From Bipalium vagum (lineage: Eukaryota): DNA of 33,901 nt. Position numbers and translations under genes: made by a program. The stretch is taken from assembly GCA_037834085.1 (NCBI GenBank), contig JBBMKC010222788.1:1-33901 (forward strand), read 5' to 3'. Shown here piece by piece: positions 2,617-33,901 of the stretch. Numbering within the stretch: the first letter of the stretch is position 1; every line of letters begins with the position of its first letter. The notes below the pieces were generated by a model, which was given only the letters and a program-made list of their open reading frames with translations, did no database searches and was not told where the DNA came from.

Positions 2617-3331
2617 TATTATGGTTGTCATAAGTAATTTCTTTATGAAATAATGAAGAATGATTATATTCCATTTTTTCCATAAAGCCATGAAATCTTT
2701 CCTTCCTTTGAACACGAAAAACGTTTGGCATCTCTTTTCCATCTTGTCAAAACTATTAAAGGTACGCCATTTGAAATCGCAATGTCACTAAAGACATCGC
2801 ATACAACGGTAGAAAATACTCTGAGTATTTTGGGATTCTTTTCTTGACTCAATGTCAAGGTACCGCATAGTTTAACGGAAGCTGATTTATTGGGATTTAT
2901 ATCACTATGTTATTCATTGCTGAAACCCATCCACTCTTGAAGCAATTCGTTAAAATTAATGAAAAGATGGTTGTCTATTATAATGTGGTCCATAAAAGGT
3001 CGTGGGGTCGTCCTGGTGAGCATCAGAATCGTCACAAAAGACAGAAATGTACCCCATGAAGGTTATGCTTTCTTTCCTGCATACTCACCGGACTTGACTT
3101 CTACCGATTATCATTTGTTTCGGTTGCTGTAGTATTCCTTGAACATTGAATGACGATGAGTCTGTCACAAGTCACATTAAAACTTTTTTCTAATAAACAT
3201 CAGGAGTTCTATGAACTCATGGCATCATGAATTTGGCGTATTAATGGAGAAAGATCATAAAAGAATCAAATATAATTGATTGAAATTGTTTTTGTCAATA
3301 AAATATTTTGAACTTTCTTGCTAACCCAATA
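2617..3331 (+). mobile_element. Degenerate, internally deleted mariner (DD34D) element
   Basis: Transposase motifs KVPHSLTE (~2857, cf. WVPHEL), NEKMVVYYNVVHKRSW (~2958, cf. DEKWxxYxN) and YSPDLTSTDYHLF (3082-3120). The HDNARPH segment is missing. Degenerate TIRs: tattatggttgtcataagtaatttc and gaactttcttgctaacccaata. Confidence 0.85.
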
Positions 3332-12400: not shown

Positions 12401-15400
12401 ATAATATCATTTTATAAGACAATACATTATGGATTTATTTTGAATGATGAATATTTTAATTGATATCTCAACATTTTTCTGACATTTCGATCTGAATTTG
12501 AATTTTTGGTAATGGTTGTCTAACCAAAGTGGAACATGTTTTTTTTAGAATTCTTATTAATACTTATCTACCTGTGTGAACGAAACAATTAGAATTACTA
12601 TAGACCTATTTTTAATTACGGTAAATCTAAAAATTCTTGGATGGTGTATTATAAATATTAATTAAAGAAAAGTGGACATTTGTAGAAAATATTTTTGTTT
12701 GACATTCTTAAGGTCTGCTGGTCAAATTGCGATTGTAATTCACTTTGATGATAAAAGCGTAAAATAAGGATATAACAAAATTAAAGAGATAATTAAAAGA
12801 ATATTTTAAAAATATAAAGTATTTATAGAATTTACTGGTAAATGTTTTCTATACATATACAATGAGTTTCTATTTATTCTGAAACCTAAAAAATGAAAAA
12901 ATTATTTATATTTAGAATAGTCCAAAAGATTTCAACCTAAATCATTAAAATCTTTTTTATTATCGTTTTATTGTATGCTTTCTTTTAATACTAAAATTAT
13001 TACCATTATAACTTTTTCTTAATATTTCATTTTTCAAATATTGATTATGAATATAAAAAAGTGTTCGTCCCTTTTAACTTTGTTCGAAAATATCTCTTTT
13101 TGTTTATGATTTTGCTTAACTTTTAATCATTGTTTACAATAGTGAGTTTGGTTTGTTATTTGATTATAATTAAGTAAATTAAGAAGTTAAAGCCAATATA
13201 GTGAATGATAAAATGTCGTTCAAATTTTAATCTAAAATAGATAAGGTTAAACAAGTTCAAATTGGTTGAAAGCGCGTATTAATATAATCTCAAAAATTGC
13301 ATCAATAAATAAATTAGTTAAGAAATAATGAGTGAAAGTTTATAAATTTAGATTTTTTGGCATTCTTTTTAATAAATTTCAGTTTGAAAATTTTCCTCTA
13401 ACTTCAAGATCTTAAACAACTAACAGTCAACCGACCAATTGATTTATTAAATATCTTAATTTTATTTTGTTCTGCATTAGAAATAATATATAAGGATAAT
13501 ATTGATTTTCATATTTATTAGTATAAAATTCATTAATATGATAATATCGAATTGATATTTGTAATATTTTTTTAATAATTATTGATTTTTTTTAAATTCT
13601 GGAAATATTCAATTTTAAACTTTCTCTTTTAAGAAACCGTCTTAGAAATTTTGTAATTTCAGTTCAATCATTTTCAAATTAATTGTAAAAAATTATAAAT
13701 TTATTAAAAATAGTTAATCAAATATTACTTTATTTTAATTATATTACATTTATTACTCATTTTAATTCATTTTTGAAAATTAGAAAAAATTATTTTATAA
13801 TAAAATTTTTTATTTTAATAATCATATTAAAACCGATCAACATTAAACGCAATTTTCTCCTTTATTAATAATAATATCATTTTTTACTTAATATTACATA
13901 GAAATTTTAAAAACCTTCCACTTGATTGATTTACTGTTTCACTTTTATATCCAGAGTATTAGAATAAATAAATATATACCATTTTCATTTTAAATTCAGC
14001 ACTTTACATTTTAAATTCAACACTTTTCATTTTAAATTCAAGACTTTACAATATATATATATAATATATGTAATATACAATTCGATACTAAAATTTTATT
14101 TTTAAAACATTCAAAATTTACATAATTGTTAGTGCATCGGTAGTCCAGATGTAGCTATGGAGAGGTTTCGTGTCATATTCATGACATAGTTGGAACAGTC
14201 TTGGCTGGTCACTGTTTTCACACCTTCTTTAATTAAATCACTTAAAGAACTTTCAGATCTAATTACTCGTTTTGTAAAATGATTAATTTAAAGAAAAATT
14301 TCAGTGTTGAATTTAAGATGTAAATTGTTGAATTTAAAATGAAAATGGTATAGAATAAATATTAGAATAAAACATTTCAAAGTAACTTTTACTTAAGTAA
14401 GTGAAAATACAAATTATTGAGTTTGTATAATTCTAAATCTTCGAAAAAATTGATGCCTTTCAATTTTAAAAATTAATTGATTTAGACTAACATTCGATAA
14501 GAAACAGAAGTTGAAGTGTGTAAGAATATGAAAAATAAATTTTAATTATGTTATCCCATCATATGACAATTTTTAATTCCATTGTAATTTTTCAGAAGAA
14601 TAACAAAGTTCTTATCTCTCAAACCTTTCAAATTTGTTAAACTTGAATTCAATAATCATTGTGTAAAATTATTGACTTTTTGGCTCTTATTATAGATTTT
14701 TGAATTACTCAAAATTGATTAATTGCTAATTTATCCTATTTAAATTTTCAGATAAAAATGCCAACTATAAAAGAAAACGTTAATACCTCTAATGAAAAAT
14801 TAGATCCAACTGCGAAAGATAAAAACGATTTAAAACCAAAGTATATGATTATGAATTTACAATATATAAATTGACGAAAATCAATATAATCAAGAACCTC
14901 TGTAATTTTGCCACCTATCAAAAGCATAGAATCAGAAAGTCAGAGAAAGGATAAAGCAAGGCATGTGCGTTCTAGTAGAAGATCTACCCAAGGTGTAACT
15001 GCTGAAGACATTGATGAAGCAAAAAGGATTATGGCTACGGCACAGAAACAGGAAAAATCCAATATTCCTTCTTCAGTAGGTCCAGTTACAGAAGTGAAAC
15101 AGGATAATATTGATGCTTTGAAAAAATCAAATAGCTCAGATTCATCTCCAAATTATAAAAAGGTGTTTTATTTTTATAGATACATAATCATGTGGAATTT
15201 TGAATTTTTTAAAGTTTAATATATTTAAAATTTGATAAATAATCTAATTTTTTTCTGTTTATCGTTTACATAAATCTCATATTTTCAATTACCCAAACTT
15301 AAAACTAAGGTTAAAAAAGTGTTTACTTAAAATTGTGTGAAAAAATCGATTTTTCTTGTTAAAAAATAGTTTTGACATTCAGAAAAATTTTTAAATAGAC

Positions 15401-18400
15401 CAAAATAATACATGTTTTTTGTCCAATTGATAATTGAAACAGAAATACTGAAAATACATTGATAATCACACGAAAATATTTATAAACATCCTCCTGTTTA
15501 TTTATACGATGTTTGAATTTATTTTTGATCAAAATTAATCATTATGATTTATTTTGATTAATGAGTTATAATTTATTTAATTATAATTATACGATTGATT
15601 TCTTTTATAGAACTACGTTTTTTAAATTACCAATCTTATATTACTTAAGTTCTGTGGTCCATTAAAAATTAATTAAATTATTTTAATAATGATTTTACTT
15701 TTTTTTAATGTATTTTGGAGGTGTTGCCACACGAATTTTTTGTTCAAATGTCAATGATATATTTGCATTCTATACCAAATTTGACTTTAGACGGAGATTA
15801 CACCACCCATAGAAAACCGGTCTCAGTTAGACATCAAAAAGCAGTCACAAATGCCAAATTCATCAATTGACGATCAATTACCTATTCCATTGTCAAAGTC
15901 TACTGATTTGGATGACAAGAGAAGTACGATAGTTTCATTTTGATGGCACGGTTTTCATTTCGAATAATTCCTGTAGCTAGAGTAAGAGGTAATTTGGCAA
16001 ATAAAAGACGAAGTGGAGATAGACCTCCAACAGGAGTCATTGATTTAAAAGATATCCAAACAGCTCAATCAGAAATTCATAAATCTGATTTGAAAGAAAA
16101 GGAAAATTTTGTTAACAATGAGCCAACAAAACCAACCTCTATATCCAACTATTCCAAGTCAATTGTAAGACGTGCATTATTATCAATTTTATTCATTTAT
16201 TTATTTTTATTGATTTTATTTTTGTTTTTTTAATAATAAATATTTTGATTTTTTAGTTGATTTTTTAGTTTATTTTTTTAAAAACCAAAGGAAAAAATGA
16301 AAAAACTGGATGTGTTATGATGTTAAATATTGATGCTACAGGAAGTCTTCAGATTTCCAAAAAAACTTCTCAAATTAAACAGGAAATATGTTTTATGGAC
16401 AGAAATTGATTTTCAAAAATAAATTGATATTTTATTGATTTCGAGTTAATTTTATAAAAATGAAAATTTTTATAATTAATAATAATAAAAATAATGTTTT
16501 CATGTGAAATGTCTGACTCAGAGATGTGAAAGTAGATCTGTGTTAGGAGCAAAAAACAAATATTTATTCAATGATCAATTTACCATTTGAATCAATTGTT
16601 TACTGTCTTTAAAAAACTATATAATTTTAATGATTAGTCTAGGAAAGGCAAAGTGACTCGGCCAATGTAACACTGCTTTCACATAGTTGATCAAGCTTGT
16701 GAAAAGATGAAAATCAGTAGATATGTCCGGTAAATATAATTTGTAAGAAAGAATTTCCTATCCATGATACTATAGATTTTACCTGTGTTTTTTCTGGTGT
16801 TTTCTTGTAGGATAATAGGTTTATATCTATCGACCAAAGAAAGTTGTTTGCACAGTTTGTCGAGCATTAGTTGAAGCACTCTGTATAAAGAATCGGTTAT
16901 GATAATTTAGTGTAGCTCGAGGAATAAAATTGAATAGATAGAGCACCATTAAGTTATCATAATTTTCTTAGAGTAAATTTTTGCTTTTGCAAAGGTACTT
17001 GAGGCACAAGTTTTTAACATTCATTGTCTTTTTTGATTCGATTATCATAAAGAACTCATCTTTCGTCAAATTATAATTCATCCCAAATATGGATTAGTTG
17101 TTGATTGGATTGATGTCTTTTAAGTAAAGAAAATGTCGGTTATTAATGATTTGTTTGAACTCGTCTATCATTTTTTTAAATGTAGCGACTATGGATACCT
17201 GAAATTACTGTGCGACATAAGTCAATGGATCATGTTCCACTTCCAATTTTCAAATCTGGTTCTTTGTGGTCAGTAGTTTTCTACGGCAGCTGCATATTCC
17301 AAAGAAAAATGTCCTTGGGACAATTTTAAAAAAAAACATTGTCTTACTTCTGGTTCAAGTACCACATTAATTTCCTTGGTAATTATAGTTAAGGTTTTTT
17401 TGAAAAAGGAAAAGGAATAGCGAATATCTTATTCTGATAGCGTATCTTTAATTTGAGAAAAGTAGGTTTAACTTATTATGGATTTACTTATTCAAATACT
17501 CTCAAATAAACAAATGCCTTTAATTGTGATATTAATTGTCAAGTTAGTAATATATTGGACATTTCATATGAAACCTCTCTTAATGATAATAAATTAATAA
17601 TCAATCAATAGTTTTTTGTTTTTTAAGTTTCTTCAAAGGCCAGATTTTGAATATAGAAAAGAAATGTTAACGATTCGGAAAAATTGACCAAATTAAAGAT
17701 TTCTCGTTGTGAAATTCGATGAACCTGAACTTATTGTCATTATGGAAAAGGAAAAATCTGCTTTAATACTGTTCTTCTTAGTAAAAGTTAACAATTCTGA
17801 AAAAAATTTTTCTTTGCTCTGTTTTATCAAACTACACAAGGTCTCCATTTTTCTATGTATTCCTGATTTGATTTTTGACACGTTAATGCCTTGGTGAATT
17901 TTGAATTCCTTTCAATCATAGATTTAGATCCAGATTCAGTATTCAATAATTCTCCACGAGTTCTTCTGCATATATCTTTTTCAAAATTCATTATTCTCAA
18001 TATATATATCTTTTATTTTAATTTGTTTTTTCGATTTTCATAATTTTTCTGTTTAAAGCAGTTACTATTTTTTGATCCAAAATCTTTTCCTGAAAAATAT
18101 CGTTATTTACTTGTCTTTCTTTCGGCATTTCTTCTACATTTAATAAAATTCTCTTTGGTTTTCGAAATTCTAATCTTGGATTTTCCTCAAATTTTTTTAC
18201 TGTCTTCAAAATTTGAATTTTCAATATCCTCTTAATTCAGGTTGTATTTTTTCCTCTATTTAGAAATATTTAGTTGCAGATGTGATTAGATTTTTCTACA
18301 TCTCTGGAATAAATCGATTAGAATCCTTACTAATAATCGCGTTGAAAGTTGATTTTCTATTGATTTAAATCCGTTCGTTGTAGAATTTGAAAATTTTATA

Positions 18401-18944
18401 ATTCATATAAATTAAGTATTAACAATTAATATAACATTTACTTTGCACATTGATCTGGAATTTAATTATTATATAATGACCTCTTAATTGTCAAATCAAT
18501 AATAAACTGTATTATTAATGAAGGATAATGAAATCAATTACAAACTTCTTTATGAAAAAGAATGCAAAGAAAAGCAGCTTTTGCACGAAAGTTTTTTAAA
18601 ACTTAGCAAGGAACTCAAAGAATCTCAAGAAAAGATCGAAAATGCTCAAAACAGTGGCTTAGCTTCAAGAAAAAATATGTTATCATCACAGGTACATTGA
18701 TAATTAATTTTTAGGGATGATAAAATTGATGATTGTATTTTTCATTAGAAATCTTTTGTTCTTCCTTCAGATTTTGATTTACAGGTAAATTTACTTTGGT
18801 TTTCGTTTCTGAAAAATTTCCTCGATATTAATTTTTTCCAAACTTCAGGAAAACGAAAAGCTCAGAGAAGAAAATCGAAAAATGAAAGAAGCCAATAGTG
18901 CTCTGATACGCGTAATTAGTCGTTTATCACATAATCATACATGA
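3412..18944 (+). CDS. PPP1R12: Protein phosphatase 1 regulatory subunit 12 / myosin phosphatase targeting subunit (MYPT/Mbs) homolog, 3' portion (456 aa in window; most ankyrin exons lie upstream of the window)
   Basis: Exons joined with GT-AG and consistent phase: 3412-3477, 5062-5099, 5144-5223, 8802-9010, 14752-14840, 14895-15162, 15791-15923, 15977-16164, 18524-18691, 18749-18784, 18849-18944 (TGA). Motifs: ankyrin-end NQTVLEVADDEVKPYL (cf. MYPT1 GQTAFDVADEDILGYL); inhibitory site ESQRKDKARHVRSSRRSTQGVT; second site RRSGDRPPTGV; coiled coil NYKLLYEKE; C-terminal leucine zipper ENRKMKEANSALIRVISRLS (cf. ENGALIRVISKLSK). Confidence 0.92.
6202..7481 (+). mobile_element. Near full-length Tc1/mariner element of the DD41D (rosa-type) group; transposase pseudogenised
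   Basis: TA at 6200-6201 and 7482-7483. TIRs of ~45 bp: caaggtgtcccataagtc...gtaaacttaaatat and atatttaagtttac...gacttaagggacaccctg. ORF pieces 6343-6717 (HTH, RSGRPR) and 6743-7027 (FSDEAIFYLKGLVNKHDVRYW), then FQQDGAP...WVLRSPDLTPL(E) with 41 residues between the second and third catalytic positions. Several stops and frameshifts. Confidence 0.92.
7700..8065 (-). mobile_element. Possible fragment of a non-LTR retrotransposon (LINE) APE endonuclease N-terminus
   Basis: The minus strand reads MNILTW (cf. xxIxTWN) at ~8060 and REIATLIIRN (cf. RGVAILIRN) at ~7880, in broken frames. Confidence 0.3.
10335..11060 (-). mobile_element. Merlin (IS1595/ISXO2-like) DNA transposon, internally deleted
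   Basis: TIR ggatcatgt / acatgatcc, flanked by near-perfect 8-bp direct repeats gcagtttc (10327-10334) and gaagtttc (11061-11068). Minus-strand peptides DKCDGCG (zinc ribbon), PFFEKFKIPL, KIGG, ENYVHRNVNQKMSFVNRETDAHMQRIESIW and LESYLNEWVSRQ match the ISXO2/Merlin C-terminal signature (VNHS..FV...TG.HTQ.IE..W ... YL.EF..R). Confidence 0.88.
11091..12199 (+). mobile_element. Degenerate mariner (DD34D) element
   Basis: TIRs tatcaggttaaggaataagtaatttt and gaaattacttattctttgacccaata. Motifs GIILKH*SERPH (cf. HDNARPH) and EVLPHSSYSPDIAQSDFYLFRSFQNHLNG (~11890-11975). ORF 11971-12156 is a shifted-frame by-product. Confidence 0.88.
13975..14352. mobile_element. Non-autonomous foldback-like MITE with TIRs built from ~21-bp tandem units
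   Basis: Left arm tataccattttcattttaaattcagcactttacattttaaattcaacact... is the inverse of right arm ...agtgttgaatttaagatgtaaattgttgaatttaaaatgaaaatggtata. Flanks aaataaata / gaataaata (8/9) are a candidate 9-bp TSD. Confidence 0.75.
14895..15162 (+). CDS. PPP1R12: MYPT exon carrying the inhibitory phosphorylation motif RRSTQGV (Thr696-equivalent)
   Basis: Translation ...ESESQRKDKARHVRSSRRSTQGVTAEDIDEAKRIM...; acceptor caag ends at 14894, donor gt at 15163. Confidence 0.92.
16492..17582 (-). mobile_element. Degenerate mariner element (antisense in MYPT intron)
   Basis: Inverted ends ttttcatgtgaaatgtc and gacatttcatatgaaac. Minus-strand motifs DER*VLYDN (~17070-17042), PIILQENTRK (cf. ILLHDNARP) and LPDISTDFHLF (~16730-16700). 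Confidence 0.8.
18524..18944 (+). CDS. PPP1R12: MYPT last three exons: coiled coil and leucine zipper (PKG-interaction region)
   Basis: DNEINYKLLYEKECKEK...SSQ | KSFVLPSDFDLQ | ENEKLREENRKMKEANSALIRVISRLSHNHT*; introns of 57 and 64 nt. Confidence 0.88.
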
Positions 18945-20340: not shown

Positions 20341-21104
20341 TTTATTAGGTTAACATATTTTTATGTAACTGATCCCTTTAGGTCGTCGATATTTTCGCTT
20401 TTTTAACTGTATGGCTAATGTTTATAAATAAATGTTGCCAATATTGTACGAAAATTCATTTACTTATTTAAGAGTTAAATTTAACATTTAGCATGTATAC
20501 AACATTGGATGAAATGTGAATAATAAAAGATCTTTTGTGGGATTTTCTTTTTTATATTCCTTTGAATATACTGATATTGTTCAATTTAAAGGATAAATTT
20601 TAAAAAATTGAATATTAAAATAGTATTCAATTTACGGAATGAAATATTTAAATAGCTTTGCATTAATTAAATAATTTCTTTTCAGATTTATTGTCTTAAT
20701 AAAGGTTTTTTGGATATAAAAACAATATTGCTTTGAAAAAATGTTATGTATGTCTAAACTCAACATTATTTTAAATTAGAGTGAAAAATTTTAAATAAAT
20801 ATTAGCTTAAATATATCACAAAAAATAAATTTAACTTCAATTTTCTTTGAATATACTGTACTCAGATGCTTGTAATAATATTTGGGGTTTTTAATTTCTT
20901 TTAGGTTTTACTTACTTTGCAATTTAAATTTTACAATTTTGATGTACTTTTTTGAACTATAGGCTTATAATAACATAATAGACAAATTCAAAAAAGGACT
21001 CGACAAATTTATTTCAACGTGCATATAATTTTGATGATACAGTGCAATTTATACAATTGATGAAATGATCTGCGCAAAGTATTCTTATTTATACACGATT
21101 CCCA

Positions 21105-24100
21105 TTAATATATTATTCGTTTCACTATTACATCTTGATTTTTAAGCGACGATTTTCCTGGTAGGTTTTTCACTTGAACAATTTTATTCAAAATTGGTTC
21201 ACGATCCAAATAGATACCCTTGATTTTTCTGACATCTCCTTTACTATTCTTACTACCTTTAGTACCGCTAGGTTGTACCAATTCAACTTCAAACTCTTTA
21301 TCATGCCACCAATACCGTTCAATGTCTATCACACGAGATTCACAATTTTTTAACTCACGATTCGATCGTAAGACTGGTTTTCTTTTTCTCTCTTGCTCAT
21401 CAAACATTTGTGACAAAGAATTTGAAATATCTGTTGACCCATCGGCATTGTAATCACTGCTACAAATACCGTCATCTTTATCCATTCTAGTTTTTGTCTT
21501 AATTCCAGACATGGTATTATTAACTGCACAATTATCAACTATCGTCTTTTTTAAATTCATTCTTGTCAGTCGTTGAACAGGTTTTTCACCCGAATTGGAA
21601 TACAGTTTCTGAATTGATGCACGAGTGGTCCTCCTTTGTTTTTTATCATCAACGCTGGTGACCACAGATTCTGATAAATCTTTCTGAAATGGTATTCTAA
21701 TATTCTTTTTCCTTTGAACTTTTAATCGATTTAATCGCACTTTTTGTATCGATTTTGATTTCAACACAATCGATTTCTTGATTCCAATTTTATTTATCCT
21801 ATTTTTTGATGATGTTTCATTAAAACGTGTACTACAGTTTATTTCAGCATTGATGGCCGAGTCTTGAAAATTTTTGTTCTCTAGACTTCCTTTCGATTCA
21901 ACGGAATGTGATGAATCCAAATGAGTCTGTGGTAATGTTTTAGTTTCTCTTTTATCGCAACATAAAGAACCCATTGTGGTATTTGCGATATTATCAGTTT
22001 TTGCAATCAGCCGTTTACTCAATCGTAATGTTTTCCCCGATTCGAGAGCTTCACTCTTCACCGAGACCGTTCTGTCAGAATTTTCTTTCACTGGAGACAA
22101 AGACAAATGATAGTTTTTATTCATTTGCACAGTTCTCAATCTTGGACAAGATCTAACTCCTTGGATCCGGCGATCATGATAGGGAGATTGAATATCTGTT
22201 GCTACTGGTAATGGATTATTGCAGTGGTTTGTAGACTTATTTTGTGATCTCTTACTGCTCACATCGGATACAAGAGACAGTTTCATTTTGCCTGTTGAGG
22301 TTTCTACCTTGAATTTTTCTATTTTCTGCTTTTTTACTGGATCACCATCATCATCATCATTCATCAAGTGATCTGTGATTTTTCGTTTTCTGCACAACGA
22401 ACTTGTTTGATTGCGTCCTTTATCTACGAAAATTTTCGTTTCATCTCTATCACTATTTGTTATTGATTTTCGATCGATTTTGGTTTGGATATCAGTCTTC
22501 TCATCAAATTCGTCTTTATCAACGAAAATTAATGTCGATGATTTTGAAACAATAGAACTTGAAGTGGAATAGCTAAATTCCGTTTTCACACCATCACATC
22601 GATGTCGACGCATTCTGGATTTTATTAGGTTTTCTTTATACATGGAATATTTAGCTGACGGAATAATTCTCCTTTTTTGCCGTGTAAGTGAACTCCTTTC
22701 GGAATCTGTATCATTTGACGTAACATATTCGTTGATGATTTCCTTTTTCTGACAATCGTGCTGTGGCGACGGCGGAAGATGAATTTCCTTTTGCTCGATC
22801 GTTTTCTTTTTCATTTCTTCCGAGGTTTCATTTTTCGTTATGAGATTATTATCTTGAACCAATACAACTCGGATATTTAAAAACTTGTAATTCTCGAAGT
22901 TTTTTGAACACAATACACCCAGTTCTTCCTTTATCATTTTATTTTCCGTTTCATTGGTACTACTATTTTCGATTTTCTCTCTCTTCAAATCGATTTTTTT
23001 CCTCTTCTTTTTTGCCTCATTGCAGAGCAAAATAACATTTTCTTGATCTTTTAATGATAAATTTTCGATTTCCAATTTCAGTTCATTTTTATCAATTTCA
23101 TTGGAACCGGAATTGTAGATATCATCCTGATTATTGTGATTTTCTTTTTTCATTTTAATTTCATTGATTTTACCATCATTGATTTTCAAATTCTCACTCT
23201 CATCTTCTAAATCATCAATTATATCAAATCGATTTTCATTCACAATTTTATCAGTTGAATTTTGATTTTTAGAGTTATAATTACTTGGATCCCATATCGA
23301 TTTTTTTAGGTCTAAATCATTTCTTCCTTCCTTATCTTCAATATTACCGACATCGTGATCAATTGAAATCGACCCTGTCGTTTTTTTAATGGATTCATTT
23401 TCTTTTGAAGACTTGAAATCATTGATTGTCGAAACAATTTTCGACATTTTATGGCCTATAGAACTTTTGTCGTAATACAAATAATTGTCTTGTATTTTAT
23501 TGATGAATTGAAAAACATTTTCACGAGATTTCGGGTTACAAGAAACTATTTTTTGTTCAAACTCATTTTGATCATCTCTATCATGTTTTCCCATCTCGGA
23601 CAGATATTCATTGGACAAATCGATGCATTCTTCAATTTTCTGTTCGACATCTGAAGGTTTTGATACAACCTGACTGACTTCGTTTTCGGAATTGTATAAA
23701 CCATCATCAATCAAAGAACAGCAAGCTGCATCACTGCTACCACCAGCGTCACCACATTCTGAGACTTCCTCAAAATCAATATAATTATCAACTTCGTAGT
23801 CTTTCGTATCTAAAACGATTTGAATTTTAACAGGAAGATTTGGCTCTGAACCGATTATAGTCTCTTGCGGTTCGTCAGAATTTCCGGATTGACTTCGTGG
23901 ATTCGTTTTTTCTACCTCTACATTTTTTAATGAAAAATAATCAATAGTTTCCGGCATGACATAAGTATCTTCCGTTAAAGATGCCGATACATTTTTCTTA
24001 TCAATTTCTCCTGTAATCATGACATTGGTTTTATTATTTTTCTCGAAATTCAGCAACTCAGATTTTTCGTTGCTTTTGCCATCATCGATTTTATTTATAG

Positions 24101-27100
24101 AATTATTATCCAATGTTACTGAGAAGTTGTTAATAGAATCCCTGGTGGATGTCGGTATAACATGAGAACCAGAACAATTTGGAAATGTTGAACTTCCACA
24201 GAACTCGTCATTTGATGAATACGATTCTAATCGATATTTTGAGGCCGAACGGGAAAGTATCAAATGCTCGTCATTATTCATTTCGATATTTCTGTTTTTA
24301 AACAAATCATCATTATCTGTTTCTATCAATTTGTCAGGAACAAGATTAATCTTAATTTCAGAAACTTCCATGTCCAAATTAGAGGTCCCATCATCAATCA
24401 AAATATTGGTTATTTCATCGTTTAAGTTTTGAGCGCCAGTTAACTTTTCATCACAATTTTCTATTTTTAATTCCCCAATTTTTTCGATTCCCGTGTACGA
24501 TATTTGAACTGAAATATGTTTTGAATGTAGATCGATCGTTTCATGAACAATTTCGGTTTTCGTCGTACAATAATCACTAAAAATCAAATTATTCATATCA
24601 TTTTCACATAAAATTGGATTTGAATCCCTTTTCTGTCCGATCACTGAAAATTCAGAATTTTTTTGGTCTAACATGGATAATTGATTGTCAATATTTACAT
24701 TATTCTCAACCACAACCTCGGTTTCGCAAAGTTCTGATATTTGAACGGGATCAGTAGCTTTTACCAAGATTAAATCGTTTGTGTTCCGAAATGTTTGAAT
24801 AGAACCATCGTCACTATTCGTCATCAATCCAAGTTGTTCCAAATCAGAACCATGTTGAGAAATATTACTTAATCGATCTTTTATATATTCATCATGAGAT
24901 ACATCGATTTTCAGACTGATTTTGTCTTCAATTGTCAACCCGTTCTCTTCATTAATCGTATTTTTTTCATCAATGGAACTAGTTTCACAATTTTCAAACT
25001 TATCTTGTTTAGTTAAACTATCTTCAGAAATATTTTCCAATACTGAATATTGATTTTTTACAATCGACCCATTATTATCAATATGCTGTTCACAATTTGA
25101 GTTCGGTTCTTCAACGAAGAAATTTTTATCCATAGAAGCTCTTTCCGGAACTTCTTCAACAATCAAATATTGATTTTCTACAGTTTCATTTTTCTGAGTT
25201 CCTTCAGAAATAGAATCTCTTTCTTTTATCGAATAATTTTCCTCAATTACGGTTAGATTCCTGATATCATTCTCAGAAATCTTTTCACAAACTGAATTCC
25301 CTTCCTTTTCGTTCAAATCAAATTCAGAACCCATGACAAAGACTATATATTTATTTTCTTTAATCGATTCATTTATTAGTATTTCTTCATTTTTTGAAAT
25401 CTGTTCCTTGACCAGGATGCCATCATCGTTTAACAAATCTTCTTCACAAATTGGAATGTTTCTTTCTTTTTTTAAAAAATCGATTCCAGGAATCGTTTCC
25501 GAACTCGAATGTGAATAGTGTTCTTTAATAGTATCATTTTCAGAATTTCTTTCCAGTATAATGACCCGTTCATTGATAAAGACTTTATTTTCACCAGTTC
25601 CTTCTCTTATTGAAACTCGTTCTACTTCCAAATCATTTTCATCTTCGATCAATCTCTTCGTTTTACAATCGATATTATTCCCAGAAATCTTTTCACAAAC
25701 TGAAATCTGTTCCTTCACCGAATGACTTTTAAAAGTACCTACATAGATTGGATGTTGATTATCTTTAATCACGACGTTATCTTCACAAATCTCGACTTTT
25801 ACCTTTGCTGCTACTTCATCGTTTTGACAGTCCGTTATTTCACTCGAAGGACTACTACTACTATTACCGGATTTCAGTACAGGAATTTCAGTTGTACAAT
25901 CTCTTTCCAGAATACAGTCCCCAATGGGAATATCAATTGTTGAAATCTCATCACAAATTAGAACTTTTTCCTCTTCCACTGAATTTTTTTCACAGATCAA
26001 ATATCGATCTTCAATTGTATTGTCTAAATTGTAATTTGTTTCATTTCTAGATAACTTCTGTTCGCCAGTAACAATAGGATCAACAAAAGTTTGATGACAG
26101 CATAAAATACTTTCCTCTTCTAACGATGTTTGTCCATTATCACTTTTAACAATCGAATATTTATCCCCTTGAATCATATCTTCATCTATGACTCTGTTTT
26201 CATCACCTTGGGAGTTTTGTTCCTCATGTTCACTAATTGTATTATACTCGTCACTAACAATCTTATCGACGGAAATTACATCATTAGACGAATTTTGCAT
26301 ATATTTTTTTAAAGAAGATATTTTGTTGGAAACAAAGTATGATTCGTCATCGGTATCATCAATACCGGGAATTTTTTCATGCAAGAAACCAAGATTTTTA
26401 TTGAGATCATTGCCTAGAATTCTTGAGAAAATTAATATCTCTTCATCTTTGATTTCGTTCTGAAGCATCGATTCACTGATTGAATATTCCTCTTCCTGCT
26501 TTTGCTTTTGTTTCTCTTTATCAATATCATTCCCTAAAATCCTTTCGTGTTCTTTTTCTTTAATATTATGTTCTTCTGTAATCATGTCATTTTCAAATGT
26601 TTCACAAAATGACTGTTCTTCTTCTGGTTTGATTTCAACAATCTCTGGGGTTTTCACAGGATTTTGAGTTTCACTGACATTCTGTGGACTTTTAACCAAA
26701 TTATCACATAGTTCCATTTCACAATCTTCATTATAAAAAGACGTTTTACAGATAGTACTATTTTCCTCTTCAATACAATTTCCCACTTGATTCTCTTCAC
26801 AACTAGGATATTGATCTGTCGGGAAAAAATCATTGTGAGACATCTCACAAACCAATTGTTCTCTCTTAATTGTATCATTCTGTGGAATGATTATTCTTTG
26901 ACAAACAAAATCTTGTAATTCTTCATCATCATCATTCCCGATCAAAAATTCAGTCCCATCAATCGATTTTTCTTCTTTAAATTTGTGACTAATTGAAGTT
27001 TCTGTACTACCTGAATCATATTGAACAAGATTCTCTGAAAGTTCTTTTTCAATTTCTAATTCTTGTTTCACTTGACATTTGTCAAGGATCTCTGGAACGA

Positions 27101-28070
27101 TTTCATTCATTATGTTTGCATGTTCATTTCTTTCTCCATCAAACTCTACTTTATCAATCGAGACTTTGTTAAACCAATCTAAATCATGTTCCATATTTTG
27201 ATTTCCTTCCATTAATTCTGGAGAATTAGCGCATTGTTGAGAGATAATAGATAATGATGCGCTTTGATTAATTTCACCCATATTCAAAACAACTGGTGAT
27301 TTCTTTGACAGTTCTTCCTCGAGTTCCAATGCTAAATTTTTCCCATCTTGTTTCACTTCTTCATCTAATTCCAATTGATTGTTATCCGATGATTTTACCG
27401 TCAATTCTGAATTTCTAGCAGCACTATCGGAACAATTATTATAATCGATAATTTCATCACGCATTTCGTCTGTTTTACTACTATCAGAACTACTATCGGA
27501 ATCAATAATTTTTCTTGTTTTCCTCCAGCGATTTTTATCTTTAAATGATAATGATATGTCCAATTCAGATTCACTCGTCTCATTATTCTTATCATCACCG
27601 AAATCCGTAATCAATTTAAATGTTGTTTTCTGTTTCACCATTTTCTTTCTCATCCAATCATCTGTTTTATGGCACGTTCTCTTGGCAGCTTGATTTAACA
27701 TTTTTTCTTCAGAATCTATTTCTGAATCCTTTTCCAGTTCAATATTCTTCCTTATCTTTCTTTGGTTAACTTTACTTATATGGACTGATTGACTTTTATT
27801 CACTGATCGAACATTGGATGTTTTCTTAGACTTGGGCAAAACATGTGATGGTGATGAATCACAGATTTTTTTGTCACTATGAGGTTTGATAGACGGTAAC
27901 ATGAAAACAGATTCCACGTCGCGATTCGTCAGACGAATCAAATTCACCAATCCACAATCCAGCGCTACAGCTGCCCAGCAATAGGCCTGAATATTAGGAT
28001 TGATAGCAACGTTTGTAATGAGCGGATAAGCAACTGATTCGTATTGGTCATACAATTGCATCATGTCGTC
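21105..28070 (-). CDS. Giant 6966-nt terminal coding exon (last WD40 blade plus ~2270-aa low-complexity tail)
   Basis: Uninterrupted ORF of more than 2300 codons in very AT-rich DNA. Acceptor ttcag at 28075-28071 is in phase with the upstream exon; stop TAA at 21107-21105; AATAAA on - at 21013-21008. Confidence 0.93.
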   Translation of the reverse strand, partial: DDMMQLYDQYESVAYPLITNVAINPNIQAYCWAAVALDCGLVNLIRLTNRDVESVFMLPSIKPHSDKKICDSSPSHVLPKSKKTSNVRSVNKSQSVHISKVNQRKIRKNIELEKDSEIDSEEKMLNQAAKRTCHKTDDWMRKKMVKQKTTFKLITDFGDDKNNETSESELDISLSFKDKNRWRKTRKIIDSDSSSDSSKTDEMRDEIIDYNNCSDSAARNSELTVKSSDNNQLELDEEVKQDGKNLALELEEELSKKSPVVLNMGEINQSASLSIISQQCANSPELMEGNQNMEHDLDWFNKVSIDKVEFDGERNEHANIMNEIVPEILDKCQVKQELEIEKELSENLVQYDSGSTETSISHKFKEEKSIDGTEFLIGNDDDEELQDFVCQRIIIPQNDTIKREQLVCEMSHNDFFPTDQYPSCEENQVGNCIEEENSTICKTSFYNEDCEMELCDNLVKSPQNVSETQNPVKTPEIVEIKPEEEQSFCETFENDMITEEHNIKEKEHERILGNDIDKEKQKQKQEEEYSISESMLQNEIKDEEILIFSRILGNDLNKNLGFLHEKIPGIDDTDDESYFVSNKISSLKKYMQNSSNDVISVDKIVSDEYNTISEHEEQNSQGDENRVIDEDMIQGDKYSIVKSDNGQTSLEEESILCCHQTFVDPIVTGEQKLSRNETNYNLDNTIEDRYLICEKNSVEEEKVLICDEISTIDIPIGDCILERDCTTEIPVLKSGNSSSSPSSEITDCQNDEVAAKVKVEICEDNVVIKDNQHPIYVGTFKSHSVKEQISVCEKISGNNIDCKTKRLIEDENDLEVERVSIREGTGENKVFINERVIILERNSENDTIKEHYSHSSSETIPGIDFLKKERNIPICEEDLLNDDGILVKEQISKNEEILINESIKENKYIVFVMGSEFDLNEKEGNSVCEKISENDIRNLTVIEENYSIKERDSISEGTQKNETVENQYLIVEEVPERASMDKNFFVEEPNSNCEQHIDNNGSIVKNQYSVLENISEDSLTKQDKFENCETSSIDEKNTINEENGLTIEDKISLKIDVSHDEYIKDRLSNISQHGSDLEQLGLMTNSDDGSIQTFRNTNDLILVKATDPVQISELCETEVVVENNVNIDNQLSMLDQKNSEFSVIGQKRDSNPILCENDMNNLIFSDYCTTKTEIVHETIDLHSKHISVQISYTGIEKIGELKIENCDEKLTGAQNLNDEITNILIDDGTSNLDMEVSEIKINLVPDKLIETDNDDLFKNRNIEMNNDEHLILSRSASKYRLESYSSNDEFCGSSTFPNCSGSHVIPTSTRDSINNFSVTLDNNSINKIDDGKSNEKSELLNFEKNNKTNVMITGEIDKKNVSASLTEDTYVMPETIDYFSLKNVEVEKTNPRSQSGNSDEPQETIIGSEPNLPVKIQIVLDTKDYEVDNYIDFEEVSECGDAGGSSDAACCSLIDDGLYNSENEVSQVVSKPSDVEQKIEECIDLSNEYLSEMGKHDRDDQNEFEQKIVSCNPKSRENVFQFINKIQDNYLYYDKSSIGHKMSKIVSTINDFKSSKENESIKKTTGSISIDHDVGNIEDKEGRNDLDLKKSIWDPSNYNSKNQNSTDKIVNENRFDIIDDLEDESENLKINDGKINEIKMKKENHNNQDDIYNSGSNEIDKNELKLEIENLSLKDQENVILLCNEAKKKRKKIDLKREKIENSSTNETENKMIKEELGVLCSKNFENYKFLNIRVVLVQDNNLITKNETSEEMKKKTIEQKEIHLPPSPQHDCQKKEIINEYVTSNDTDSERSSLTRQKRRIIPSAKYSMYKENLIKSRMRRHRCDGVKTEFSYSTSSSIVSKSSTLIFVDKDEFDEKTDIQTKIDRKSITNSDRDETKIFVDKGRNQTSSLCRKRKITDHLMNDDDDGDPVKKQKIEKFKVETSTGKMKLSLVSDVSSKRSQNKSTNHCNNPLPVATDIQSPYHDRRIQGVRSCPRLRTVQMNKNYHLSLSPVKENSDRTVSVKSEALESGKTLRLSKRLIAKTDNIANTTMGSLCCDKRETKTLPQTHLDSSHSVESKGSLENKNFQDSAINAEINCSTRFNETSSKNRINKIGIKKSIVLKSKSIQKVRLNRLKVQRKKNIRIPFQKDLSESVVTSVDDKKQRRTTRASIQKLYSNSGEKPVQRLTRMNLKKTIVDNCAVNNTMSGIKTKTRMDKDDGICSSDYNADGSTDISNSLSQMFDEQERKRKPVLRSNRELKNCESRVIDIERYWWHDKEFEVELVQPSGTKGSKNSKGDVRKIKGIYLDREPILNKIVQVKNLPGKSSLKNQDVIVKRIIY

Positions 28071-30452
28071 CTGAATCAATGAAAAAACTCTTAAATCTCA
28101 ATTAAACGTGATGAGATAGATAAGAAGAAAGTGAGAAAATTAAAAAAAGAGTAGAATTACATGACTTTCACAATCGACTAAGACGACTGATTTTGAGTAC
28201 TTGCTCTTCACGCATCGATAGTAATGAAAGCTCTATATGAAACAATAGATATTTATAAAGAGACGACTTTCAATTGTCTTACTTGGCGAATTTCTGAAAA
28301 ATCTTCATCGTCTTTCGTTTCCGTGAGTGCTTCAACAATGGTCGTGTGGTTCAATGAAATGATTATTAATTCACCTTCTGTAGCCACAATTATAGAATTG
28401 AGATAATCACAGAATTGAACGGACTGAAACGAGAAGATCAATAAATAATCGATGATAAGATCAAAATCTGATACCTGAATTCCAGATATTGGTATGATGA
28501 CTTTACAGTTGGTCAAAATCGTTTTAATGACAATTTTATCTTTGGTTTCTGGTACCGCTATCAAAAGATCGCTTCGGCGAGGCCATAAAACTGCACCCAG
28601 TGCATATTCGGACCTTATGATGTCAACTGGTAGGTTACTGGAGGTTATATCGATTGTGAAATTGAAGCCATATTCTTTGCTGGATACAACTTCACCGATT
28701 AATAATAACAAAATCAGAAAGAATAAACGAAGAGAAAAACAATACCTGAAACGTTAAATTGCTGCCAACTCATTGGAGAAAACGAAATAGATTTAATGGA
28801 ATCGTATGCCACTCTCTTTTTGAATACCGGAATTAAATAATGATGTTCATTGTCATATCGAGTGAAATGAGTACAAGACAAGTCATATAGGGCTACAAAG
28901 CCTGAAAATAGCAATAGTTTTATATTATAAATTATTATTATATTTTTTTATTATGATGTAAAATATGTTTTGATAATTCTATAATAGTCACGGTAAATGT
29001 CAGTTTAAAATGAAATGACAAAATTTAAAAATTGAATGACAAAATTTAAAAATGACGTGACAAACCCGGTATATATTTTTTATTATTGAAATCGATTATT
29101 TTTATGTTAATTATTTATTATATTTATCATCATTATTATTATCAGTTCTTAACTCGATTTTCATATGCATAAACCATTTTTACCTCTAGAATATCCTACA
29201 ACAAGTTTTGAACAAAATTGACTTTTCCAATCAACACAAGTTGGATTTCCAAACCGATCTTCTTTTTCTGAACCGATCGTATTAAAATTTAAAAAGACTA
29301 AAAAATTATTACCAATGGAATAAGACGAGCTTATTGCCAGTCTCATGATGTTGCAATCATCAATTTTCAGAACAATCGATTTATCGGAGTTCACAGAATT
29401 GGAAGAAAATTCGTCCAACTGTTCTTTGGAAAATTTTGGGACGGGAATAATTCGCAAAAATTTATCTGCACAAACCAGTAATAAATGTCCATATAATGAT
29501 TGTGGTGATTCAAGCTGATTGTTAATGTTGGTATATTTGAATCCTTTGATCGACTCAGCATCTAAATGATTGGGAGAGATCCATAACATGTTAATGATGT
29601 TTTCTTTGTCGAAAAGTAAACTGTATTTCAGTTCGGTTGTTGATCCTCTACAATGGGACAAAGATGATAATTTCCACACAAATAATATCGATTACAAGTT
29701 CGCATATGAACCATAATCCCATATTTGAATGATGTTCACTGAACCTTCATTTTTCGTAAGCACCTGTTTCGACTTTGTTTCCCCATCTACAGTTCTTAAG
29801 CAAGCGAGAATTTCATTTTCTGACGATGTTATATTGGGGCACCAGGACAATTGGGAAATGTTAGCACCAAAATTAGCGTAACCTTGTTAAACCAAAATTA
29901 ATGCCCACCTAAATTAATAAAATACATACACCCAGCACTTTGCAGTGTTACCAATTTTTTTTTCAAATTACTTTTCTTGATATGAATTTCGATACCTTTC
30001 TCTTCAATTGTTTTGTCATCTTTATTATTATCTCTAAAAAAAAATATTAGAATAACTCAATTGAAAATAGTATCAGTACTGGAATTCTATACATGACCAG
30101 GAGAGCTTCTTTGGAAATAGTTGATTGTGACGAGTACCTAGACTATTACGTTCAACGTCACAGACTTCTCTATTTAAAGAAAATTTAATAAAATATGAAG
30201 ATTTAGCTTTACATAGGCTGCTCAAGAAAAGGAGAAAGAGATTTCTGAAAAATTAATGTCTCCTTTACAAATTTCTTCAAATAAAAATCTTGGATTGTAT
30301 CTTCTGTCGAATACCTTTGCCATTTAATGTGACTTTTATAAAATAATTCCAAATAATTATCAACAGAATTAGAATATGGTGAACCTATTAAAGTATATAC
30401 GTCACATGAATTTATATTAATAATGCAATTTACAATAATCAACCATATCCAT
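21105..30452 (-). CDS. GTF3C2: General transcription factor IIIC subunit 2 (TFIIIC110/Tfc6)-like WD40 protein with a very long C-terminal extension, ~2846 aa
   Basis: 12 GT-AG, phase-consistent exons: 30452-30434 (ATG), 30384-30213, 30169-30080, 30033-29930, 29882-29696, 29647-29313, 29267-29184, 28901-28746, 28689-28475, 28423-28283, 28232-28161, 28070-21105 (total 8541 nt). Motifs in GTF3C2 order: NFGANISQLSWCP, IIQIWD, GHLLLVCADKFLRIIPVP, PTCVDW, LVVGYSRGFVALYDL, IKSISFSP and ITNVAINPNIQAYCWAAVALDCGLVNLI (cf. human [28 protein letters not shown]). Confidence 0.72.
24950..26600 (-). repeat. Degenerate ~17-19-aa coding tandem repeats
   Basis: Examples: EEYSISESMLQNEIKD / EEILIFSRILGNDLNK / EQISVCEKISGNNIDCK / ERVIILERNSENDTIKE / EQISKNEEILINESIKE / GNSVCEKISENDI. 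An identical 23-mer cagaaatcttttcacaaactgaa occurs at ~25274 and ~25682. Confidence 0.6.
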
Positions 30453-30999: not shown

Positions 31000-32236
31000 T
31001 TCGACCTAGTCATAGGATCGAGATCCAGCTAATTCTCTTTTTAAAACTACCAAAGTTCTTTCATGTCCTCTTCAAAAGACACCACTCAGTAACAGTTTAC
31101 TCATAAATAGTTCCCGGCTTCCTATCTTCTTCCAGCATTTCTTAATCAATACAGTAACCGAATCACCAGAATCCTATAGTATTTCAACAATCTGTCAAAC
31201 TGTCTTCACCCAACTCCACTGTCTATCATCAACTATTTTAAACATCGGTACATCCTTTACACTTCGATTTCTATTCAGAGATTGGCTGGACTCAACAGAT
31301 AAAATGTGATCAATGAAGTCTGTAATATTTTTTACATCATAGTCTGTGTCGTCTTGTAAACTCTCATCTTCACATATACAATTCAATGGATAACATCGTG
31401 AGATTTCTCATTCCACTTTCTATAATGATCCCGCTATACTGGTCTGATTGATTTTAAGTCCATGTATTCAGAAGTTTTAATTGTTTTTAATATTATCCAC
31501 CTTGAACCATCTCTGCGTAATGTCGATGTCGTACTGCGTTTACTTGCACTATTCCCTATTCTCATAAAACTTTGCCGAATATCTGATCTCTTCTATATTA
31601 ATATCTGATTTTGTCATGAGTATTTCTTTGACTCAATTGCTTCTTGTTCTTTTTAGCAGGAAATCTGTAACCCTTTCTTCCAGTGATAATCCAGAATCCA
31701 TTAAGTTGCTTAAGTGATTACGAACTCAAATCTCGAATGTTGTGAACCTCTCATCCGCGTTTTTCTTAACTTCTGCTAGGTCCATTTACAATCTATACAA
31801 ATGAGTTTGTCACCAAAATTATTTTCTTAAACCACCTCATTGCTTCTTCTTTTGCTTCGCAGTTTTCTTTTTGAAATTCTTCCACAATGCAGCAGCTTTC
31901 TTCTATAGCAAAAGATAAAAAAATGACCAAACATAGATAACTTTTGCTAAATCACTTGTTGATTTTCTTTATCCAGCGCTTTGCTTCTGATGACCTCTGT
32001 CCATTAAATTTACGGATCTGTACTTGTTTTGGTAAAGCATCAAGAAGCTTCTTCTTTCTTGACTTCTCGTAACGACATTAATCTTTTTGGTATGGTCGTC
32101 AATTAGATCTTCTTTCCTATTAATTAATAAAACGGATTTGATTTTTCAAGAATAGTCGAATTCTAATTAAAATTTTCAAGCTGGTTTGTGTGTTTCGTGA
32201 CAAAATTTCAGCGGCTTTTATAGTGATTGTTGATTG
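31000..32236 (-). mobile_element. Degenerate Ty3/gypsy LTR retrotransposon fragment (possible 5' LTR remnant, gag, aspartic protease)
   Basis: Minus strand: LPKQVQIRKFNGQRSSEAKRWIKK, EAMRWF and KKNADERFTTFEI (gag-like). VEIL*DSGDSVTVLIKKCWKKIGSREL at ~31190-31110 (DSG protease) is in frame with ORF 31386-31195. Upstream are tataaaag and a degenerate PBS-like ttgacgacca (~32104). Confidence 0.75.
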
Positions 32237-32488
32237 TTTGAACCCAGGACCTATCACATGCGCATAGACTGCTCTGACCACTGAGCTACATCTCCGACTA
32301 ATATTCGATTTATCTCATATCCCTCTCCTTTAAAGCTCACATCCATCTCCTTAACCGCCCCGAGTCTCTTTACTTCATTTCCATTTCATTCCTTTACATT
32401 TTTAATTTCGAGACCTCGTCCGCTGGTTGGTGTCCTGGTGTGGTCACAATGTTAACTGAAAATTATTCGGAGATACTGGGATTCGAAC
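32237..32488. mobile_element. Circularly permuted ~245-bp LTR-like unit containing a tRNA-derived Pol III cassette
   Basis: Internal junction GGTCACA-a-TGTTAAC (32442-32456). Ends tttgaac (32237-32243) and ttcgaac (32482-32488) overlap to rebuild a full cloverleaf inside a TG...CA unit. Confidence 0.6.
32240..32295 (-). pseudogene. tRNA-Ala(CGC)-like sequence, 5' portion through the T-loop (non-functional, repeat-borne)
   Basis: GGAGATG TA GCTC AGTGGTCA GAGC A GTCTA TGCGCAT GTGAT AGGTC CTGGG TTC. A-box and D-stem are intact, the anticodon stem is mismatched, and the 3' acceptor strand is absent here but present at 32488-32469. Confidence 0.75.
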
Positions 32489-32759
32489 GTACAAAATTTT
32501 ATTTCACGAACATGTTTTTCTTCCACGAACATAAATGTACGCCTATTGTGGCTTTTTTTCAATCTTCATTTTGGAGCAGGTCGTCATCGCAGTCGTCGAG
32601 ATCTTCAGCAGCATCATCAGACTGGCGTTGATTTTCATCGTCAATTTCGTTGAGTTCGGAGAAGTTCACTGATTGTCTTCAAACATATCTGTGAAAATTC
32701 CATTGCGCAGCACTCCATTTTATATTCAAAAGAAGATTACAATTGGCATTTTCCAAACC

Positions 32760-33830
32760 AAAACATATGATGGGTGATTTCGAAAAGTTAATCAACTATC
32801 TTAGATGAGCCGATAGTGTGGAAAATTGTCTGTGAAATGTCCATAAGATGATGGAAGATGTCTTGTCACATGAAATGAAAAAGGAAAGCCTTTTGAAAAA
32901 CCCCTAATTAGATGCATAAACGATCCAAAAATTGAGAATGAGATCGAACGGAGAAAGTTAGGAATTACTGAAGAAATAGAAGATCTAATTAAATTAATGG
33001 ATGTAATCCGACAGAAACAGTTTGATCAGGTCAATACTATCAGGACCTACAGAAACAAAGCGCGGAACGGTAGATATCAAAACGTACGGAGCCAGGAAGC
33101 AGGATATAAGATTCAATCTGTTGCAAGAATGTCTCAACAAGAAGACAAATAGAATGATGGACGTGTAAAAAAGTTGGACATATAGGCCAAGACTGTCCAG
33201 GGAAGAGAATTCCTACATGTTTTAAATGTGGAAAAGCAGGACATACGGCGGAATTGTACAGTTTACAAATGTCAAAGGTGTGGAAGAAATGGTCACCAAG
33301 CTTCGGAGTGCTACACAAATCTAAATAGAGGTCAGAGAAGAAACAGGAATTTTTACGAACGTAATCAGGAGATGAATGAAAGTAAAAGAATTAATGTGGT
33401 TAGTGCAAATATTGATGCGATATCGGAAGGAGATTGCATGAGAGAAGAATGTGAGAATGCATCAGTGTACCCAAAAGACAAAGCTCCACTAGTAGGGGAG
33501 CTAGTGGGAGCCATATACTAGGAATCGAAAATGATTATTCTCAAAAGATTGAGGCAAGGAGTGACGCAAACGACAGAGAAAGTGTACAGATTTTTAAAGT
33601 AGCAGTTTGAGATTGAAGATTGTAAGCAAGTTAATGCGATTGCAGAAAGTGAAGAGACAATTATTTCGTATGACAGAATGCATGGACGTCCAAGTGTGAG
33701 AATAAGTGCAGGATTTGGAATTGGATATTCAAATGGATACGGGAGCAGGAATTAATGTAATGGGTATGAAAATTGCCCATAAACTGAAAGATGTTAAGAT
33801 TCCAGAGGGAGAAATGTGGAGACTCCCAAA
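32760..33830 (+). mobile_element. Degenerate Ty3/gypsy LTR retrotransposon: gag with three zinc knuckles and a protease, pol apparently deleted
   Basis: *WTCKKVGHIGQDC, CFKCGKAGH(frameshift)RRNC and CQRCGRNGHQASEC (33155-33311). Protease QMDTGAGINVM at ~33730. Then a purine tract agagggagaaa directly followed by TGTGG at 33815 (PPT / 3' LTR start-like). Confidence 0.85.
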
Positions 33831-33901
33831 ACAAAACAAAAAAACATTGTGATCCTAATGATTTTATCCCAAAAAACAGTTTTATTTATGTTAATAAAAA
33901 T

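Follow-up and report, generated by a model that had tools for sequence, protein, structure and literature searches.

A probable TFIIIC110 gene of Bipalium vagum with a predicted disordered tail of about 2,270 residues, the longest in a four-gene family

The usual view of the transcription factor TFIIIC is that of a single complex with six subunits, encoded by single-copy genes, and its TFIIIC110 subunit likewise usually has one gene copy. In known TFIIIC110 members the low-complexity part lies N-terminally and the protein stops shortly behind the head. Here we describe a gene on the minus strand of a complete 33.9-kb contig (C222788; 33,901 nucleotides (nt), 28% GC; hereafter the window) from the 441-Mb, 272,664-contig assembly of the flatworm Bipalium vagum. 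We consider it likely that this is an intact TFIIIC110 (GTF3C2/Tfc6) gene whose tail of 2,270 amino acids (aa), predicted to be disordered, is the longest in a family of four genes with elongated last exons. The protein would resemble human TFIIIC110 (GTF3C2), yeast tau91 (Tfc6) and S. pombe Sfc6 in its predicted beta-propeller and in block order; its similarity to the family lies below the reach of every search made here. An earlier note on this DNA, made from the letters alone, had proposed that the usual layout is inverted, and the gene model agrees: no more than about 129 aa stand ahead of the head's first conserved block, and 2,274 aa follow its closing motif. By our estimate the protein is roughly 320 kDa, half of the 624 kDa of the whole human TFIIIC, and it is one of four copies where a single gene is usual.

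A long flexible segment within TFIIIC has a precedent. In the sections of PMC11811891 used here, the TFIIIC220 subunit has a flexible linker of about 550 aa with a proposed fly-casting role; that linker joins two structured modules, whereas the window tail belongs to another subunit, is four times longer and has no shown distal anchor. Disordered regions tend to be encoded by long exons, a trend that the portion of Fukuchi et al. (PMC9825244) drawn on here describes for internal exons. As in the exon elongation treated in that portion, the window gene combines a very long exon, predicted disorder behind a structured domain, the apparent trace of an internal duplication and, perhaps, a further small domain beyond the disorder; unlike the internal exons of that account, its long exon is terminal and 6,966 nt in length, and all four paralogs show the trend. 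The top matches of our search of open papers included no work on GTF3C2 in flatworms, on tails of this kind or on paralogs of TFIIIC110. Long orthologs may already stand in the public annotations of related flatworms; what is new here is three further intact, tail-bearing paralogs, with tails of 644, 980 and 1,483 aa.

An open-frame listing gave 2,330 codons without a stop on the minus strand from 28097 to 21105. Our hand-built model starts at an ATG at 30452, comprises 12 exons separated by 11 GT-AG introns (nine of 43–56 nt, one of 90 nt and one of 282 nt) and encodes 2,846 aa with no internal stop; its start codon, like the acceptor of exon 9, is inferred. Exon 1 (30434..30452, minus strand, as are all features of the gene) is followed by exons 2–4 (29930..30384), which encode a short N-terminal region to about aa 128, and then by the beta-propeller-like head (aa 129–572; 27930..29882), which occupies exons 5–11 and the first 47 codons of exon 12 and is delimited by paralog alignment and weak propeller signals. 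Upstream of exon 12 lie 525 aa; exon 12 itself (28070–21105) encodes 2,321 aa and the stop, with 2,274 aa beyond the closing motif quoted in the earlier note, or 2,281 aa counted from that motif's CG. About 90 nt past the stop, a sequence scan found an AATAAA (21008..21013), a candidate poly(A) signal.

From base composition, the open frame of exon 12 would arise by chance with a probability of about 1e-90.6, and the other five frames hold 85–351 stops. The single read run at hand, DNA as judged by its intronic depth, is probably the source of the assembly and so not independent of it. A 14.7-kb contig from these reads spans 20500–28995 with zero differences, and depth is 26.5–37 across 23 bins from 20851 to 28923. 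The flat depth and the unbroken, difference-free contig rule out a chimera and a collapsed repeat for the exon 12 region. The open frame and exon structure of the gene are real; the WD40/GTF3C2 label is an interpretation, not an observation. Gene model and depth agree with what the earlier note saw, a frame that stays open without an intron for ~2270 codons past the WD40 region, behind a first ~525 codons split by 11 introns. The 282-nt intron 7 contains a short high-copy repeat, the bin at 28924–29274 reaching a depth of about 3,500 against about 29 elsewhere.

A genome search with the start of the last exon led to three further loci, B1, B2 and B3, beside the window gene (A). Searching back from one paralog returned the same four of four candidates, and the short-tailed GTF3C2 paralog that the earlier note wanted looked for did not appear in these genome searches; all paralog counts are lower bounds. 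Past the CG of the closing motif, each copy continues in a single exon, for 2,281 (A), 644 (B1), 980 (B2) and 1,483 aa (B3). All four spliced heads are stop-free and contain six conserved blocks, at identities of 22–24% between A and the B copies, 43–45% between B1 and B2/B3, and 77% between B2 and B3. Intron 5 is common to A and B in position and phase, and introns 10 and 11 approximately so; the B copies lack introns 6–9 of A and have one additional intron ahead of the closing motif. Because four copies carry a tail at the same place, the long tail is likely a family trait of the GTF3C2-like genes rather than the one-off fusion with an intronless open reading frame (ORF) that the earlier note had suggested. 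That note had also named equally long tails already standard in the clade as a refutation; within this genome that holds in part, all four copies being tailed (644–2,281 aa). The only real outside relative that we found (P0001, 223 aa, an unnamed fragment of a public run) is 45% identical in its core to A and 34–36% to B, and clusters with A in a tree of five rows in which the A branch is long; it is uninformative on tail length.

The B tails share C-terminal motifs (E 5e-10 to 2e-4) despite a 2.3-fold range of lengths, which suggests that tail ends are under selection. For B2 and B3, dN is 0.285 and dS 0.808 over 247 codons, and dN/dS is about 0.35 downstream of a block that the two share; the paralog heads are thus under purifying selection. 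The shared block is a 461-nt contig (C1067; L023) through which both genes run, identical in each, making them at least paralogs. It has exact 77-nt overlaps with two upstream and two downstream contigs, the downstream pair being 74% alike, and likely reflects a recent gene conversion between B2 and B3. The pairing of 5′ arms with 3′ arms is provisional, and we infer the contig link between the head and tail of B3. Shortly past the head, both genes have a GRP core that we take to be AT-hook-like; it had no Pfam match. Along the B3 tail (L009, C70295), a short basic R/K-L-R-S motif occurs six times at scattered positions. B2 (L011 511–700, C180464) extends about 55 hydrophobic residues beyond the end motif that it shares with B1 and B3, possibly through a lost stop or an unspliced intron.

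D, E, K, N and S are frequent in the window tail, whereas aromatic residues are scarce. FoldIndex is below zero in 12 of 12 windows past aa 600 and above zero in 3 of 3 head windows, so that the disorder prediction proposed in the earlier note came out as expected and the tail is predicted to be disordered. By charge count, a short neutral start gives way to about 1,400 acidic residues (23136..27335; net −16 to −30 per 200 aa), the predicted disordered middle, and then to about 680 basic residues (21108..23135; net +5 to +18 per 200 aa), whose K/R clusters look like nuclear localisation signals. Pfam matched no family in the tail. Two 45-nt copies (25715–25671 and 25307–25263, within 25263..25715) are 89% identical (self-comparison E 8e-11) and look like the relic of an internal duplication; at the protein level, repeats in all four tails showed no excess over local shuffles. 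Codon use in head and tail correlates at r 0.87, in a test that discriminates little (0.53–0.59 for Prp8, 0.19–0.24 for one paralog head). Very long exons are not rare in this genome: the open frames that contain Prp8 and RPB2 measure 1,369, 1,178 and 1,013 codons.

The last 84 aa of the tail (21108..21359) may form a small C-terminal beta-strand domain. The model is strand-rich at a pLDDT of 53, and its best structural matches are weak Tudor/SH3-like barrels (best Z 3.1, to Tudor, rmsd 3.2, 51 aligned; Foldseek E 2 or worse); an OB fold is unsupported. In a genome search, the last 100 aa matched only themselves. A donor-like site at 21131, nine codons before the stop, scores 7.1, and no convincing downstream exon was seen in 21100–18900.

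We judge it very probable that the head is TFIIIC110/GTF3C2, while not counting it as a demonstrated member. The name is drawn from block order and from genomic context. The six blocks, ending in NPN...W.A...CG, follow what we take to be TFIIIC110 order and spacing. As for context, the TFIIIC setting assumed by the earlier note is present in the same genome: Tau95 occurs at one locus (E 1e-8) and TFIIIC90/GTF3C4-like genes at two (C116872 and C195008; L057 and L058; E 3e-6 and 4e-5). The two TFIIIC90 genes are 38.5% identical over 563 aa and look intact, with long open exons and C-terminal cysteine clusters. Taken alone, each TFIIIC90 exon ORF scores under the Pfam cut-off, which indicates that TFIIIC subunits are very divergent here and that blank searches are to be expected for the head as well.

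Head searches used exon-sized pieces. One paralog piece matched a propeller family in Pfam weakly (E 0.022). Three of three word-based homolog searches were blank, over proteins of up to 2,000 aa, a range that leaves out long orthologs. HMMER over 1.84 billion proteins gave two hits, P0001 and P0002, the latter dropped as a repeat artefact, and a metagenome scan gave 60 pattern matches with none confirmed. A CDY-like match in the PDB (E 0.009–0.026) was rejected as it vanished with a tighter profile, and CDY is not known to be a propeller; C197709 (E 0.44) proved unrelated.

The GTF3C2-like expansion belongs to a wider pattern of duplicated general transcription genes, and this pattern is the lead of greater interest. 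TBP-family matches fell on 9 contigs and TFIIB-family matches on 10. The inspected loci (7 TBP, 7 TFIIB) comprise one canonical-looking copy each of TBP, TFIIB and BRF1, plus diverged copies and one short scrap, likely another animal's; these labels are assumed from motifs. The second TBP copy is intronless and 78% identical in nucleotides to the canonical one. RPB2 has several copies, among them a 77% nucleotide pair and recent copies at 94–97%, unlike RPA2 and RPC2, which are single-copy (TBP, TFIIB, BRF1 and RPB2 loci: L012–L021, L043–L052, L059–L068). A search with the BRF1 C-terminal family was blank and had no positive control. Two TBP paralogs in tapeworms are reportedly the subject of one study (PMC13134418).

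With a 3.5-fold variation in tail length among the paralogs and end motifs that persist, we favour a flexible tether with short functional elements as the most likely reading of the tails. The last exons of the family would have grown by elongation of an unconstrained exon. The head would pair with a TFIIIC90 paralog within tauB, the module that binds the B-box, and the tail, beginning where the propeller closes, would hang free. Tail length and the middle of the tail may drift freely, while short elements (basic clusters, the AT-hook-like cores in two paralogs, and terminal motifs or a small domain) could contact DNA or partners. A bolder proposal, which we regard as possible at best, is that four TFIIIC110-like and two TFIIIC90 proteins form alternative tauB modules, each with a disordered tail, on a single tauA and Pol III core. 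Such TFIIIC isoforms might be specialised by B-box site, tissue or chromatin job, alongside extra BRF1, TBP, TFIIB and RPB2, and the 2,270-aa charge-blocked arm of the window would be the extreme case. How the role of TFIIIC in tRNA transcription relates to its genome-organising role is an open question in the field, and four tail-bearing TFIIIC110-like and two TFIIIC90 paralogs would provide natural variants that could separate the two. Should the tail be only drift, it would still illustrate exon elongation cleanly, and on a core transcription factor.

Several results weigh against a TFIIIC110 gene lengthened by exon elongation. At E up to 10, none of nine PDB sequence searches that used pieces or profiles of the head listed a TFIIIC chain, Pfam gave no WD40, TFIIIC or AT-hook family for window and paralog pieces, and a search for the GTF3C1 B-block domain found no clear match (E 0.9). 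The model of a 316-aa paralog head piece is strand-rich but poor (pLDDT 35). The window tail aligns with none of the B tails, so the tails of A and B may have independent origins. Among 419 GT-AG candidates of 40–60 nt in exon 12, the top score is 11.9; the 11 modelled introns score 5.3–32 when left out one at a time (median 13.2), and four of them (5.3, 5.7, 11.0 and 11.3) fall under that best cryptic candidate, which leaves room for small in-frame introns in exon 12. Finally, the assembly holds two cytochrome oxidase I (COI) types in genetic code 9 (AAA Asn, ATA Ile), 79% alike, broken nuclear-type copies of one of these, and two other animal COI types, scraps of other animals that represent prey or contamination (COI loci L026–L031). 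Together with the short AT-rich introns, code 9 suggests a rhabditophoran flatworm, although echinoderms use it too.

Among the rivals to the favoured reading, ranked by falling probability, a selected arm comes first, followed by another WD40 family, a mixed sample, a one-off fusion and a tail that is not translated. Selection on the entire tail length, for a chromatin-organising or condensate-forming arm whose acidic block would bind histones and whose basic block would bind DNA, is suggested by the distinct charge blocks, the 2,321 stop-free codons and a role of TFIIIC in 3D genome organisation reported in the sections of PMC11811891 used here. We nevertheless think it unlikely, with paralog tails that range from 644 to 2,281 aa, have no acidic block and cannot be aligned with the window tail. 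The head could instead be a different, lineage-specific WD40 protein: no sequence or fold match to TFIIIC110/Tfc6 was obtained, and the top fold matches of the 316-aa piece were mostly propellers, with generic blades (Z up to 4.9), none of them significant. This we hold to be distinctly improbable in view of the six blocks in the order and spacing presumed for TFIIIC110, the divergence of TFIIIC subunits here, which makes blanks expected, and the parallel duplication of TFIIIC90 and BRF1.

A second animal in the sample might have contributed the B copies, making the family partly one of orthologs. The two code-9 COI types would fit, as would the TBP and RPB2 pairs at 77–78% nucleotide identity and the two TFIIIC90 and two BRF1-like genes. 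Prp8, Tau95, RPA2 and RPC2, however, occur once each (lower bounds), which speaks for a single, well-assembled nuclear genome with scraps besides; the second TBP copy is intronless, and B2 and B3 share their identical block. We therefore give a mixed sample little credence, and even if it were true the tails would typify two species. A single fusion that joined GTF3C2 to a mobile element or to a separate ORF without introns would account for the abrupt switch from intron-rich to intron-free sequence, for a window tail unrelated to the paralog tails and for its possible small domain at the end. It is hard to square with the same layout in all four copies, a distal end that matches only itself, single-copy depth, a tail free of Pfam domains, continuous codon use and exons of over 1,000 codons in Prp8 and RPB2, and we consider it highly improbable. 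Hardly more plausible would be the loss of most of the tail from the mature protein by early polyadenylation or splicing: exon 12 does contain 14 AATAAA and several donor-like sites, that at 21131 included, but 19.5 AATAAA are expected, and 7 kb of untranslated sequence at 32% GC would not remain stop-free (1e-91).

Upstream of the window gene, about 31000–33901 is a retroelement-like stretch that is degraded and includes a zinc knuckle (E 0.003). A tRNA-like look at about 32240–32300 was not confirmed by any tRNA or Rfam match, and B-box-like sites upstream of the gene occur at chance density. The convergent neighbour at 8735–18941, plus strand, represents the C-terminal exons of a MYPT1/PPP1R12-like gene, whose last exon matches PRKG1_interact above the cut-off (E 5.6e-8) and which has, at about 14980, an RRSTQG site that would be a motif of this family. 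Within or beside this neighbour lie Tc1/mariner-type remnants: a broken transposase at 6334–7027, plus strand, with weak HTH and DDE_3 matches, and, presumably, further broken copies at about 11300–12150 (plus strand) and about 2600–3130, named from their motifs.

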